Shown piece by piece: positions 2,479-6,306 of a stretch of 38,717 nucleotides of DNA (positions within the stretch are counted from its first letter, which is position 1; each line of letters opens with the position of its first letter). Both the position numbers and the translations under genes were made by a program. Source of the stretch: a virus; IMG/VR virus record IMGVR_UViG_3300029671_000007; one strand, 5' to 3'. Below the pieces are notes generated by a model. It was not told the DNA's origin. It did no database searches and was given only the letters and a program-made list of their open reading frames with translations.

Positions 2479-2579
2479 TACTTTAGCGTAATGTATTTTA
2501 CAAAACGCGATTTTCGATCGATCTCCTGGATAGGAGCAGAGGCTCACAGGTTAAGGGCGAAAGGAGGCGCACCAGCCAC

Positions 2580-2975
2580 ATGTATAAAACAGATAAGCAG
2601 AGAGCGGCGGAGGGGAAACCATCATACTACACCGCCCCGGAGCTGGACGCAGCTTGTGCCGCCTACTTTGAGGACTGCGACGCCAATGGCCGGCAGCCTA
2701 CCAAGCCTGGACTCCTTCTCCATCTTGGGGTGACGGAGAAGGAGTGGAAAGTTTGGGAGGCGGGGGAGCCTGGATATACCAGACACCCGGCGATCTGCCA
2801 AAAAGCGTTGCTGGAAATGCGCGACCGACTGGAGCAGCGCAAGGACACGGCGGCTATATTCCTACTCAAGCAAAAGCCGTATGGAGGCTATACAGACCGG
2901 CCAGAGCCGGATAGTGTAGGCGGAATAAAGATCCACGTTTCATTCGGCAAGGATAAGCCCAACTCAACAAAATAG
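2580..2975 (+). CDS. terS: Terminase small subunit, 131 aa
   Basis: The pattern YF..C......PTKPGLLLHLGV...LLKQKPYGGYTD is typical of phage TerS HTH-type proteins. It is the first gene of the packaging module. The SD is AAGGAGG. Confidence 0.7.
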   Translation: MYKTDKQRAAEGKPSYYTAPELDAACAAYFEDCDANGRQPTKPGLLLHLGVTEKEWKVWEAGEPGYTRHPAICQKALLEMRDRLEQRKDTAAIFLLKQKPYGGYTDRPEPDSVGGIKIHVSFGKDKPNSTK

Positions 2976-3276
2976 TGATTCTATTGAGTTGAACGAGGAG
3001 GCAAACCATTGCGGCGCAATGAGTGAGAGGCTTTGCATACTGTATTCGCAATATGCAGTCTTCAGACCACAATATATGGGGGTGTCTGCACGGGCTGCAC
3101 TGCATGGATAACCAGCGCCCCAGGGCGTGCAGGTGAGCGAGGGAGCAGGGGAGAGGGGAGGCCCTACCCCCGCCCCGCCCCCACCCGGTACGGGGGTAGC
3201 GGAAAATCGGGGGTGCCTTTCCAGGAAGGGTATAGGGGTATCACCGCTTTCACCAAACGCCTCCAAAGCATTACAC

Positions 3277-3350
3277 AGGGGATTCGCCAAGCGGTAAGGT
3301 ATGAGGTTTTGGCCCTCATATCGCAGGTTCGATTCCTGCATCCCCTGCCA
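3277..3350 (+). tRNA. tRNA-Gln: tRNA-Gln (anticodon UUG), 74 nt with encoded CCA
   Basis: Manual cloverleaf. Acceptor AGGGGAT/ATCCCCT. D-arm GCC-AAGCGGTAA-GGT. Anticodon stem TGAGG/CCTCA with loop TTTTGGC. Variable loop TATC. T-arm GCAGG-TTCGATT-CCTGC. Discriminator G, then CCA. It is close to bacterial tRNA-Gln. Confidence 0.9.
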
Positions 3351-3371
3351 CCGGCGTGAGCCGGACTTTTC
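3351..3371 (+). terminator. Small hairpin plus T-run immediately after the tRNA
   Basis: CCGGC-GTGA-GCCGG (GNRA loop), followed by ACTTTTC. Confidence 0.4.
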
Positions 3372-4623
3372 CCGCATCCTCCTTTTCTACCGCCCGGCGC
3401 CGAGGCGGTAATATCGGGCCCCTACGCTGCACGGCTGAAAACCACCCGATAAACTGGGCGGAGGGTCGCGCCCTCCATGCGGCAAATGACTGTGGAGAGA
3501 CACTATACCGGGAAGCCTAGAGCGTCTGACGGCCCCGGAGAAGGGGCATGACGCCCGCCTGTCATGGAGGCGGAAGCGGTGGCAGCTATGACCTGCCCCG
3601 GCGCTATCCCACTGAAAACTGCCCTGCGAGTGGCTAATCATGATGTCGCCGCCGAGACCAGGGTGTGACAATCTAAGCGGGAAGCGCACAAAAAGTTGCA
3701 AAAATGGGATGGTGTAAAGTGAGTGGTGTACTCATAATCATTGCAGAACTTATCTGCCTTGTTCTTATGGTTGTAAATGCTTATTTAGCTTTCAAAGCAA
3801 AGCAGAAAGACGACCTTAATGGAATGGTTTGGAATTTGGCATTTATGATCCTAATGAGCACTTGTATTAGATAACCAAAAATATGCCGAGTGCTGTAGCA
3901 GAAGCGCCTGCGGCGGCCCGTTACGTCGCGGACGTGTGGCGGCTCAATGCCGCCTCTCGGCTCCAAACGCAGATGGAAAGCAAAAGAGGCACTGCGCGAT
4001 TAAATTAAATGCCAATGGGCGGCTGGACAACCTACTGTCCGCCATATGCCGCTCCTCGCCGCATGAGGCGGGCGGTGGCACCAGATGTATGGCACCACAG
4101 GTTAAAAGCAGACGGGCCTTCCTTGTGCGCTGTGCGAAAGCGGCAAGGCGAAGAAAATTATTGTTGGCTGACCCCGGCTCTATAAAGATGAACGGTTCCG
4201 ACTGACGACACCAGCGGAGGGGTTGAGATGTACCGTGATTATCAAGGCTGTTCCTATGGATGGAGTATGTGAGGTGAGGATGGAAAGGTGTGGCAACGTA
4301 GACCGACCAGCGGTGTCTAAGCGTCAGTAGCAGAAACGGAAATAGGTTGCTGATTGTAATACAGCCTTGATGATTGTGATGTGATCCCGCATAGCGGGTT
4401 ACATACCATTGAGCGGTGGCGGAACAGACACTAATTGTGGTAAAGCTGGTGCGATTACCAGCAATAGTAGACGCTGACAGTGAAGAAGAGTAACCGTCTG
4501 TGAAGAACAAAGCAACAGCGGCGAAGTCGTGGGCGTAGAGCTTTGGTGAGGCCCATATGTGAGGTGCAAATCCTCACCCGCTCAAATTTGCCGCCCCGCA
4601 GTTGCAGGAGACGGGGGCGGGGG
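3372..4623 (+). ncRNA. Candidate large structured non-coding RNA(s), ROOL/GOLLD-class or novel; boundaries uncertain
   Basis: There is no credible CDS apart from a doubtful 56-aa AT-rich ORF. GC-rich hairpins are dense. Long-range pairings include 4241-4251/4361-4371 (11 bp, extended by G-U pairs valid only on the + strand) and 4409-4416/4578-4585, stacked on a T-arm-like hairpin at 4559-4577. A terminal hairpin lies at 4591-4620. Confidence 0.35.
3704..3874 (+). CDS. Possible small hydrophobic protein, 56 aa with two predicted TM segments, in an AT-rich island
   Basis: MGWCKVSGVLIIIAELICLVLMVVNAYLAFKAKQKDDLNGMVWNLAFMILMSTCIR. By eye the region is about 36% GC within flanks above 60% GC. There is no convincing SD. 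Confidence 0.3.
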   Translation: MGWCKVSGVLIIIAELICLVLMVVNAYLAFKAKQKDDLNGMVWNLAFMILMSTCIR

Positions 4624-4653
4624 TACTACAAAACAGGGGGTGGGGATGTTTTC

Positions 4654-4827
4654 ATGGCAGACCCGAAAATTTCAAAACAGAGAGCTGTGGTTCAGGGCGG
4701 ATGGGTATTGTGTCCGGTGACCTGGGCCAAGATCGGGGCGCTGGAGAAGGGTGCCCACGGGAGCGGGGTGGCTCCCTACTGCCCCAAGTGCAAGGCATCC
4801 CATCCGGTGATATTGAAAGAGCCCTAG
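4654..4827 (+). CDS. Small Cys-rich protein, 57 aa, resembling the Cys-rich KTR family
   Basis: Internal ATG of track ORF 4543..4827, with a G-rich SD (GGGGGTGGGG). WVLCPV...APYCPKCK...ILKEP resembles, from memory, the WILCPVCG...LYCPKCK...VIKEP consensus, but the first CxxC is degenerate (CPVTW). Confidence 0.55.
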   Translation: MADPKISKQRAVVQGGWVLCPVTWAKIGALEKGAHGSGVAPYCPKCKASHPVILKEP

Positions 4828-4887
4828 AGGCCAACTACCGAGGAAAACTCGGCGGTTGGCCTCTTTTCGTTTGTCTGGAGGTAGGTT

Positions 4888-6306
4888 GTGGCAAGGCGGA
4901 AACCGAATCAGCCCACGGGGGAAATCAAGCTGGAGCTGGGGGAGCTGTATCCCAAGCAGTGGCAGTTCATAGAGAGCAAGACCCGGTACACGGCCTATGG
5001 CGGCGCGCGGGGCGGCGGCAAGACCCACGTGCTGATCCGGGCCTGCATCCGGGGGGCCTTGCAGTATCCGGGCATCAAGATTCTGATTCTGCGGCGTACC
5101 TACCCGGAGCTGGAGCAGACTATCATCCAGCCCATGAACAAACTGGTTAACTCCGCTACGATGGACGGGCGGCCCTGCGGCGACCTGATTGCCACCTACA
5201 ACGGCACCATGCGAATGCTGTTCTTTGCCAACGGTTCCACCGTGAAGTTCGGCCACTTGCAGAGCGCAGCGGCTATCACGGAGTACCAGGGCCAGGAATA
5301 CGACTGGATTTTCATGGACGAGGCCACCCACTTCACCGAGTATGAGTTCCGCACCATGGGCGCGACGCTCCGTGGCGTCAACGAGATTCCGAAGCACTTC
5401 TATTTGACCTGTAACCCCGGCGGCGTCGGGCATCAGTGGGTGAAACGGCTGTTTGTCACACGGGAGTATGAGGGCGTCGAGAGCGGACGGGATTACTCCT
5501 TCATCCCCGCCACGGTGGAGGACAACAAGGAGCTGCTGAAAGCGTCCCCGGAGTACATCCAGATGCTGGACACACTGCCGGAGGACATCCGGGCGGCCCA
5601 CCGCTACGGCGATTGGGATGCCATGGCCGGACAGTATTTCAGCGAGTTCCGGCGGGAGCGGCACGTGGTGAAGCCCTTTATTGTGCCTAAGGAGTGGCCC
5701 CGCTACCGGGCGTTTGACTACGGACTTGATATGTTCGCCTGCTACTGGTTCGCCATTGACTTTGACGACCGGGTGTGGGTGTACCGGGAGTATTGCGAGA
5801 GCGGCCTGATTGTGTCCGAGGCAGCGGCGGCCATGCGTCGGCTGACCCCGCCAGAGGAGCAGATTCAGTTTACTGTTGCCCCGCCGGACATGTGGAGCAC
5901 CCAGAAGGACACGGGGCGCACCATGGCCGAGATTTTCATGGAGAACGGCATCGGGATTGTCCGGGCCTCCAGCCAGCGGGTGCAGGGCTGGATGGTGGTG
6001 AAGGAGTTCCTGAAGGAGCGACCGGACGGACGCCCGGGGATGCTCTTCACCGAGGACTGCCCTCGGATGATCCGGGATTTGCCCGCCCTCCAGCACGACG
6101 AAAAGAACCCCTCGGACTGCGCCAAAGAGCCCCACGAGATTACCCACAGTCCCGACGCCCTGCGCTATGGGCTGATCTACCGGATGATGGGGGCACGGCT
6201 GGAGCCGGTGCGGCCGGAGCGGGACGATGTGGACTATGTGGAGGAGTACGACGACTACATGACCGGCGGAGAGGCCGCCGACGGATATCTGAGCTACGGA
6301 GGATAA
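4888..6306 (+). CDS. terL: Terminase large subunit, 472 aa
   Basis: Walker A GGARGGGKT, a Walker B-like WIFMDEA, and a C-terminal nuclease region. It has a GTG start 6 nt after GGAGG. Confidence 0.95.
   Translation: MARRKPNQPTGEIKLELGELYPKQWQFIESKTRYTAYGGARGGGKTHVLIRACIRGALQYPGIKILILRRTYPELEQTIIQPMNKLVNSATMDGRPCGDLIATYNGTMRMLFFANGSTVKFGHLQSAAAITEYQGQEYDWIFMDEATHFTEYEFRTMGATLRGVNEIPKHFYLTCNPGGVGHQWVKRLFVTREYEGVESGRDYSFIPATVEDNKELLKASPEYIQMLDTLPEDIRAAHRYGDWDAMAGQYFSEFRRERHVVKPFIVPKEWPRYRAFDYGLDMFACYWFAIDFDDRVWVYREYCESGLIVSEAAAAMRRLTPPEEQIQFTVAPPDMWSTQKDTGRTMAEIFMENGIGIVRASSQRVQGWMVVKEFLKERPDGRPGMLFTEDCPRMIRDLPALQHDEKNPSDCAKEPHEITHSPDALRYGLIYRMMGARLEPVRPERDDVDYVEEYDDYMTGGEAADGYLSYGG

Follow-up and report, generated by a model that had tools for sequence, protein, structure and literature searches.

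A probable transfer RNA island, with an apparently undescribed ornate RNA, between the terminase genes of a phage

What does a phage keep in a gap of 1.68 kb in the middle of its packaging module? The gap in question spans positions 2976-4653 of 38,717 nucleotides (nt) of viral DNA (IMG/VR virus record IMGVR_UViG_3300029671_000007), the whole of which we call the window; the features of the gap described below are all on its plus strand. The gap separates the small terminase gene terS (2580-2975, a match to phrog_606 and PF16677) from the large terminase gene terL (4888-6306, a Terminase_3/6N match). An initial annotation proposed it, as protein-free and helix-dense, as a candidate giant RNA with an embedded transfer RNA (tRNA), either of the ROOL/GOLLD class or new. 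The gap between the two terminase genes is real, with both flanking identities upheld by the PHROG and Pfam matches, and the embedded tRNA is there as well. But the stretch is not one unit, as at least eight modules within it are independently present or absent in near-identical phages. We propose, with a probability of about 0.72, that the gap is a tRNA island, that is, an array of independent RNA genes on the same strand plus a moron for a membrane protein, and that the array includes an ornate RNA similar to GOLLD and ROOL but smaller. We call this RNA element A (3426-3687). The order of the array is tRNA-Gln, a leader, element A, a small open reading frame (ORF), a tRNA mimic (module B), a minihelix (C), a three-hairpin motif (D1), an insertion (D2), a tRNA-like RNA with a long insert (E), and a hairpin (F). 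Other loci are referred to by their L numbers where they need to be told apart.

Element A consists of a 5′ module (3426-3483) and a core that we call A3 (3490-3687, 198 nt in the window), about 260 nt altogether. In alignments and folds, the 5′ module is closed by the helix GCUGCA 3426-3431/UGCGGC 3478-3483 and holds two hairpins, one of them at 3460-3476; in other loci the same slot holds a real tRNA. The core combines four helices, one pseudoknot, one loop-loop pairing, and a Z domain at its 3′ end, and its 5′ strand is conserved (CUGUGGAGAGACACUAUAC). In the M domain (3490-3600), the loop of hairpin H1 (3508-3512/3534-3538) carries the sequence GCGUC (3522-3526), which pairs with GACGC (3550-3554) to form the pseudoknot PK1 (3522-3554). 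Two more hairpins follow, H3 (3555-3573) with the 7-nt loop GUCAUGG (3561-3567), and H4 (3577-3600) with the 7-nt loop CUAUGAC (3586-3592). These two loops are mutually complementary, while their stems are just 3 nt apart. The Z domain (3601-3687) reads GCGCU-AU-CCCACU-GAAAACUGCC, then a variable hairpin, then GGUGUGACAAUCUA-AGCGGG-A-AGCGC, such that two helices, GCGCU/AGCGC and CCCACU/AGCGGG, enclose an internal loop with the invariant GAAAACUGCC and GGUGUGACAAUCUA around the variable hairpin. The Z2 helix is present in 100 distinct cores.

The evidence for this structure is covariation, and not folding energy. When individual pieces of the gap, in a GC context of 55-63%, are compared with dinucleotide shuffles, their folding energies are 0.8-2.8 standard deviations below those of the shuffles. 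These minimum free energy (MFE) z-scores, -0.8 to -2.8 for the modules, are no better than those of a terS coding control (-1.8/-3.6), and in this sense the helix density of the gap is not in itself beyond chance. Because the z-scores fail to discriminate from coding controls, we dropped them as evidence of structure.

Homologues of element A were gathered from IMG/VR, GTDB genomes, and metagenomes by short exact conserved words. Anchored extraction gives 138 copies with 81 distinct cores of 165-461 nt, and a covariance model trained on 19 diverse sequences reports 103 matches in 100 metagenome and genome loci. In the window, the covariance model (R1) finds the core as a single copy on the plus strand, with 217.5 bits and an E-value of 2e-74. 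An alignment of the 19 sequences made with MAFFT only has 90.6% of the cells paired, versus 37-44% after sliding the partners; in 14 pairs both sides have changed, and none of 500 shuffles reaches the observed values. The alignment to the model (82 distinct sequences, 100 loci) has 92.3% of the cells paired, versus 27-44% with slid partners, and changes on both sides occur in 42 of 50 pairs (reached by 0 of 500 shuffles). PK1 is outside the model structure, and it is 97-99% paired, with swaps between UA, GC, and CG. The complementarity of the H3 and H4 loops, extracted by columns from the model alignment, is kept in about 10 versions (for example GUCAUAU/AUAUGAC, UUGAUGG/CCAUCAG, GCCUC/GAGGC, GUCUC/GAGAC, UGCAG/CUGCA, and GCUGG/CCAGC). 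G-U pairs are numerous in the pair tables of the 82-sequence alignment, and they would be A-C mismatches on the opposite strand. The many G-U pairs, together with the flanking tRNAs being on the same strand, are the reason why we take the plus strand to be the RNA strand.

How does this compare with the helices that had been proposed for the gap? The hairpins and long-range complementarities in the initial annotation are all present in the sequence, and some prove to be conserved: the hairpin at 3388-3411 belongs to the leader, that at 3460-3476 to the 5′ module of element A, that at 4591-4620 to module F, and the complementarity 4241-4251/4361-4371 is the conserved closing stem of module D2. 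The hairpin at 3547-3566 can also be formed by the sequence, but it conflicts with PK1 (3522-3526/3550-3554) and with H3, both of which have the support of covariation.

The homologues come mostly from one bacterial family and one environment. The GTDB genomes give 11 matches, mostly in Oscillospiraceae, including Flavonifractor plautii ATCC 29863, Vescimonas, Colidextribacter, Dysosmobacter, and Muriventricola; the metagenomes give at least 120, mostly from human gut. One cultured phage, the Flavonifractor phage Castelnaud, has element A. When the first copies of the homologues are aligned, invariant blocks alternate with blocks that are wholly different. The Z domain is invariant, the M domain is of two unrelated types or absent, and the linker between M and Z takes insertions, including a tRNA (a tRNA-Met in L083).

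Element A and the Z-type RNAs are undescribed in Rfam 15 and in the literature that we covered, incompletely, by topic and by motif sequence (the motif matches were all to miR-122). Element A thus apparently is an undescribed family of orphan ornate RNAs in phage tRNA islands, and of the two options in the initial annotation it is "new" that applies, to a complex-folded RNA with covariation support that matches no described family. Membership in the ROOL/GOLLD class does not hold. The checks that had been suggested were run with Rfam 15 and permissive filters on 2500-5200, 3355-3700, and 3875-4660, and neither ROOL (RF03087) nor GOLLD, HEARO, raiA, or group I/II introns produced a match at gathering score or at E ≤ 10; the GOLLD model (RF01998) has no match in 29 related loci either. 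Other known RNAs, compared by eye with the conserved motifs, do not fit, and they have no Rfam match: RNase P RNA, transfer-messenger RNA (tmRNA), 6S, Y RNA/YrlA, and T-box; the cobalamin and lysine riboswitches; and the hammerhead, hairpin, pistol, and twister-sister ribozymes.

A far more numerous class of RNAs ends in the Z domain alone. These Z-only RNAs (AAUGACAAUGCUCGCUGAAAACUGCG...GCGUGUGACAAUCUAAGCGGGAAG) are 150-190 nt long and are found beside tRNAs in IMG/VR gut phage contigs (L085, L089, L095, L097, L108-L123, L127, L128, L134, L138, L146-L148, L155, and others). No Rfam model covers them, and their neighbours include drum (RF02958), RAGATH-21, and GP20-b. These three are orphan motifs of the same gut-phage tRNA islands; none of them overlaps with element A or with the Z-type RNAs, or occurs in the window.

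GOLLD and ROOL are nevertheless the known RNAs that element A resembles in its genomic habits. Both are carried by phages or prophages and occur in tRNA islands; the 3′ region of GOLLD is universally conserved, its 5′ region is variable, and tRNAs are right beside it and can also be in its linker (PMC12286853). ROOL is often near tRNAs and has a complex fold with pseudoknots (PMC5737381, PMC12286853). Element A likewise is a phage-borne RNA with tRNAs or tRNA mimics flanking its core in most loci, and it has an analogous layout to GOLLD, with a conserved 3′ region, a variable 5′ region, and a tRNA in the linker of one locus (L083). Similarly to ROOL, it has a complex fold with a pseudoknot. 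The differences are of size and of detail. GOLLD is longer than 800 nt, whereas the core of element A is 165-461 nt. Element A is a third to a quarter of the size of GOLLD or ROOL, and its hosts are mostly Oscillospiraceae. Set against ROOL, element A is about 260 nt long, with a single pseudoknot, a single loop-loop pairing, and the Z domain as its distinctive part.

In the element A family, tRNAs or tRNA-like structures lie on either side of the RNA, on the same strand. Directly 3′ of the core, after the sequence ...AGCGCAC-AUAU, we find minihelix C in 25 distinct loci, tRNA mimic B in 13, a real tRNA in at least 6, and an F-like hairpin in 3; the remaining loci have an inserted small ORF or a hairpin in that place. 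At this boundary, where AGCGCAC-AUAU is followed by GCC, the spacers between the core and the tRNA or mimic are short and of near-constant length. (We also considered ATAYGCCG as a signal repeated throughout the window, and rejected it: with 4 sites versus 1.9 expected it is not enriched, and it is merely a local unit boundary.) On the 5′ side, the window has its tRNA-Gln 75 nt upstream of element A, and other loci have a tRNA-Arg at 4 nt or a tRNA-Ile, -Leu, -Ser, or -Gln at 22-168 nt. The core and its flanking tRNAs share one strand throughout, and in L087 two copies of element A are in tandem between tRNAs.

ARAGORN also reports "tRNA-???" genes with abnormal anticodons of 2 or 4 bases, at 24-157 nt upstream of the core in L086, L087, L088, L170, L204, L259, and L301. 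These add to the non-canonical tRNA-like genes of the islands.

The first long genes downstream of the islands code for small terminases of several unrelated families, large terminases, portals, HNH endonucleases, or anti-repressors. The island is usually at the head of the packaging module, whatever the type of module, and its placement between terS and terL in the window is a variation on a theme. The modules appear in other orders and combinations in other phages.

How independent the modules are can be seen in close relatives. We compared nine IMG/VR contigs with the same terS (88-100% identity). L005 and L010 do not have 3432-4056, and their terS and terL are 99% identical to those of the window. 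L003, L004, and L009 have about 80 nt in place of 4084-4403. In L004 and in Castelnaud, 3691-3880 is missing, and 3690 is joined straight to 3881. The initial annotation had suggested looking for relatives in which terS abuts terL. L011, with a terL that is 80% identical, is indeed a relative without an island, having no tRNA and no module, yet its terminase genes do not abut: a spacer of about 430-470 nt is between them, and only a block corresponding to 3185-3268 is common to both phages. From these block-wise differences, L011 included, we conclude that the island is an insertion into a pre-existing spacer between terS and terL, with parts that are individually dispensable. The modules are separately conserved, and they are separately gained and lost.

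The 625-bp difference in L005 (4060-4100) and L010 is a natural deletion that takes away element A, the small ORF, module B, and half of module C. Its endpoints are the imperfect repeats CGCTGCA and CGCCGCA (3425-3431 and 4057-4063 in the window). We rejected an exchange of cassettes at unit boundaries for these two phages, as this is a plain microhomology deletion that truncates module C.

In the INPHARED collection, matches are limited to Castelnaud, short stretches in Chenonceau, and uncultured fecal phages. Castelnaud has a homologue of 3379-3690 plus 3881-3975 at 81% identity, placed elsewhere, between a regulator gene and HNH-terS-terL. Chenonceau has only 4044-4084 and 4591-4620 in common with the window. 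In the record of Castelnaud (L001, ON453903.1, 5970-6470), the homologues of element A and module B coincide with three tiny coding sequences labelled "hypothetical protein", and the latter are probably spurious gene calls.

What are the other modules of the island? The tRNA-Gln (3277-3350, anticodon UUG) is a real tRNA with an encoded CCA end; it matches the cloverleaf of the Rfam tRNA model (RF00005) with 59.4 bits, and it is also called by ARAGORN. It is the one feature between terS and terL that Rfam and ARAGORN recognise; in 29 related loci, the Rfam scans yielded tRNAs plus drum, RAGATH-21, and GP20-b. Three other modules look like parts of tRNAs. Module B (3885-3965) is an 81-nt cloverleaf-like tRNA mimic with the acceptor GCCGAG/CUCGGC, the T-like arm GGCGG-CUCAAUG-CCGCC, and an encoded U-CCA; it has 24 variants in 67 copies (fold z -2.3). 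Module C (4048-4083) is a 36-nt minihelix of an acceptor and a T arm (6+6, that is, 12 base pairs) with an ACCA tail. Its 74 copies comprise 10 variants, and both stems show compensatory changes (-22.8 kcal/mol, z -2.8). Module E (4411-4584) pairs an acceptor GAGCGG (4411-4416) with CCGCUC (4578-4583), and has a T arm at 4559-4577 and a D arm resembling that of class-II tRNAs; its 37 variants have inserts of about 78-148 nt at the position of the anticodon region, and its acceptor covaries (GCAGAUG/CAUCUGC in L114 and L154). All three have an acceptor-type stem on a T-type hairpin, and their stems covary; B ends in U-CCA and C in ACCA, while E has the discriminator A but no encoded CCA. Neither ARAGORN nor the Rfam tRNA model (at E ≤ 10) recognises any of the three as a tRNA.

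Between B and C, the segment 3966-4047 is a lineage-specific spacer with a hairpin at 4019-4043, found only in near-identical relatives. Module D1 (4121-4236) is a three-hairpin motif that has no Rfam match. From 12 loci that are about 75% identical, RNAalifold derives 27 pairs in it, of which 7 show compensatory changes. The same motif occurs in L123, L128, L134, L153, L155, L167, L178, L188, and L204, often downstream of Z-type RNAs. Module D2 (4241-4372) is an insertion closed, in the fold, by an 11-bp stem (4241-4251/4361-4371). It is missing from L314, L235, L322, L270, and L093, where D1 and 4373-4403 are kept. Module F (4590-4620; GCCGCCCCG...CGGGGGCGG) is a conserved hairpin found in Chenonceau and in many loci, usually directly after E.

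The gap is not protein-free either. The ORF at 3704-3874 (alternative GTG start at 3719, GC 0.43) codes for a small membrane protein of 51-56 amino acids with two transmembrane helices. In 32 protein clusters at 68-96% identity, its frame and its two-helix hydrophobic core are kept. It is a real gene, a moron of low GC at the junction of A3 and B. In other loci, this junction has a tRNA-Thr, another (basic) small ORF, or nothing.

How would such an island be expressed? We propose that it is transcribed as a polycistronic precursor of the tRNA type, which in the window would start at a promoter-like site upstream of terS (2439-2466) and end at a terminator (4826-4874). RNase P, directed by the flanking tRNA and tRNA-mimic structures, would cut the 5′ ends (with a U at -1), and tRNA 3′-end enzymes would complete the release, leaving each RNA as a separate and stable molecule. 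Element A would then act in trans, as an accessory RNA of lytic growth, as proposed for GOLLD and ROOL. A precedent for this kind of processing exists in phage T4, where species 1 and 2 of the tRNA cluster are non-tRNA RNAs freed from a tRNA precursor by the tRNA-processing enzymes. The RNAs of the island similarly adjoin tRNAs or mimics with short spacers of near-constant length, from which we infer their processing; they differ from the T4 species in being larger and in having tertiary contacts supported by covariation.

Several considerations weigh against this interpretation. The folding energies of single sequences are unremarkable, and the expression, processing sites, and stability of the RNAs are all deduced from sequence. 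The island is dispensable in near-identical phages, hence any function must be accessory. The sample is dominated by phylogenetically related gut phages. The conservation of CUGUGGARAGRCACUAYAC and of GUGUGACAAU..UAAGC is partly by construction, because the homologues were collected by exact motif matches. The 82-sequence alignment is fitted to the model, which inflates the pair counts of the modelled helices and leaves PK1 and the loop pairing unaffected. Whether the loops pair between or within molecules is argued, below, by geometry. And since our coverage of the literature is incomplete, an earlier description of element A may exist.

Could element A instead be a leader acting in cis on the packaging genes downstream, such as a riboswitch, an antiterminator, or an attenuator? 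We find this unlikely. Its appeal is that in other phages the islands are just 5′ of terS, HNH, terL, or portal genes, of any terminase family, and that in the window a terminator precedes terL. However, nothing like an expression platform for one gene class directly follows element A: there is no terminator or ribosome-binding site adjoining it that it could mask, and what follows it is variable (minihelix, tRNA mimic, tRNA, moron, hairpin, or other RNAs). This variability of the downstream partners is our reason for not regarding element A as a cis-leader. In addition, there are phages that lack it although their terS and terL are 99% identical, and a tandem double copy is possible (L087).

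In phage phi29, the packaging RNA (pRNA) has two covarying complementary loops, and its gene is tied to the packaging machinery; it is essential, and it sits on the portal of protein-primed phages that lack terS. Element A is of similar size, it has two mutually complementary covarying loops, and it is located among or beside packaging genes, so one could imagine a packaging-motor RNA whose loops build a ring on the portal. We consider this quite improbable. Phages with 99% identical terminases (the near-identical L005 and L010) lack element A, which is why we do not regard it as a motor RNA of the pRNA type; it is dispensable where pRNA is essential and always accompanies the motor genes. These phages code for classical terS/terL terminases, and we know of no classical terS/terL phage that requires an RNA. 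Moreover, there is no match to the Rfam pRNA model, and element A is co-located with tRNAs in tRNA islands, not with one packaging gene family.

An element acting at the DNA level (a pac or cos site, a replication origin, or a recombination hotspot), with inverted repeats that mimic RNA helices, is improbable to much the same degree. The terminase genes are adjacent, and the TGCA-type repeats of 2976-3276 are kept in the relative without the array. But the compensatory changes in 3426-4620 include many G-U pairs, which we read as strand-specific, and there is no DNA rationale for a pseudoknot or for covariation between two loops. The same RNA also occurs alongside unrelated terminase families, and the island is dispensable.

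A single giant ornate RNA of about 1.7 kb that fills the whole gap and contains the tRNA, either as a member of the ROOL/GOLLD class or as a larger kind related to it, would account for the phage location, the adjacent tRNA, and the many hairpins, and the GOLLD linker can hold tRNAs; with ROOL and GOLLD both unmatched even at E ≤ 10, with modules that are independently deleted, replaced, or inserted in phages 93-100% identical elsewhere and that are reordered and recombined in other phages, and with a conserved protein gene in the middle of the stretch, this is very hard to maintain. Finally, remnants of decayed or frameshifted protein genes, for which speak the long GC-shadow ORFs on both strands, can be dismissed: Pfam and PHROG scans of 15 gap ORFs from both strands at E ≤ 0.1 gave no match other than a sub-threshold YwiC for the small membrane ORF, the indels of the homologues, judged by eye, ignore the reading frame, and the substitutions in helices are compensatory. 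The two outcomes that would have spoken against an RNA, a decayed gene and a lack of covariation among homologues, were thus not found, and the covariation is strong.

Within the reading of the gap as a tRNA island, the loops of element A deserve a closer look. If H3 and H4 pair along the whole of their 7-nt loops, the kissing complex would stack both stems end to end over about 20 bp, for which a 3-nt linker would be too short. Because the loops are fully complementary while the stems are 3 nt apart, we propose that H3-H4 pairing occurs between copies, and the complementarity is probably intermolecular, making a dimer or a ring. The CCA-ended tRNA mimics suggest, speculatively, that the island engages the tRNA-directed machinery or defences of the host. 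Putting the two together, we can only tentatively entertain that element A and its Z relatives are a class of self-assembling phage RNAs, forming dimers or rings and released with CCA-ended mimics as decoys or cargo. Were it true, element A would be a miniature counterpart of the ROOL and GOLLD cages or of the phi29 pRNA ring, and the mimics would be aimed at the tRNA-processing machinery of the host or at tRNA-targeting defences.

GOLLD and ROOL have had their cage structures solved, with a role that is unexplained. Element A shares their genomic habits, but it is modular and much smaller, and no relation to either is detectable. It is abundant in human-gut phages of Oscillospiraceae, and the cultured pair of Castelnaud and F. 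plautii plus the natural deletion variants make a tractable system. Its companions, namely tRNA mimics ending in CCA, motif D1, and the Z-only RNAs that far outnumber it, are also undescribed. Are tRNA-type processing and RNA-RNA assembly general in phage RNA islands? This system allows us to ask. For annotation, the lesson is that a long "empty" gap near the terminase genes of a gut phage can be densely packed with RNA genes; current tools annotate nothing there or call small ORFs that are spurious, as has probably happened in the Castelnaud record.

The remaining features of the region are outside the RNA modules. The native spacer between terS and terL (2976-3276; MFE z -1.3) contains inverted repeats with TGCA, and it is outside the RNA island proper. 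Its block 3185-3268 (GGGGGUAGCGGAAAAUCGGGGGUG...GGGUAUAGGGGUAUC) is 82% shared with L011, the relative without an island, and is the sole part of the upstream spacer that blastn aligns. In the two spacers (2976-3276 in the window and 3104-3531 in L011), this conserved block may be a pac or regulatory site. The pairing 3164-3171/3192-3199 noted in the initial annotation is present in the window, but on reading the L011 sequence its 5′ partner is missing there.

The leader (3351-3425) has, in the fold, a GNRA hairpin at 3351-3364, the tract UCCUCCUUUUCU at 3377-3388, and a second hairpin at 3389-3409. The order hairpin, CCUCCUU, hairpin precedes element A in most loci. The tract at 3377-3388 (UCCUCCUUU) has the same sense as the anti-Shine-Dalgarno end of 16S ribosomal RNA, and it is also found in L016, L048, L063, L105, and others.

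Past the end of the gap, an intrinsic-terminator-like hairpin with a U tract (4826-4874, plus strand; -29.5 kcal/mol, z -3.96) comes shortly before the start codon of terL, and similar hairpins occur in L048, L207, L277, and L319. Since this apparent transcription stop separates terS from terL, terL would need read-through or a promoter of its own. Immediately upstream of the terminator is a small conserved ORF of 57 amino acids (4654-4827, plus strand) with a C...CPKC motif, found in 8 clusters at 76-100% identity, including Clostridium sp. ATCC BAA-442. On the other side, a small ribbon-helix-helix-like ORF (2173-2367) is followed by the promoter-like site just 5′ of terS (2439-2466, TTGAAT-16-TACAAT), which overlaps a hairpin (2439-2478) and probably starts the transcription unit that contains the island.

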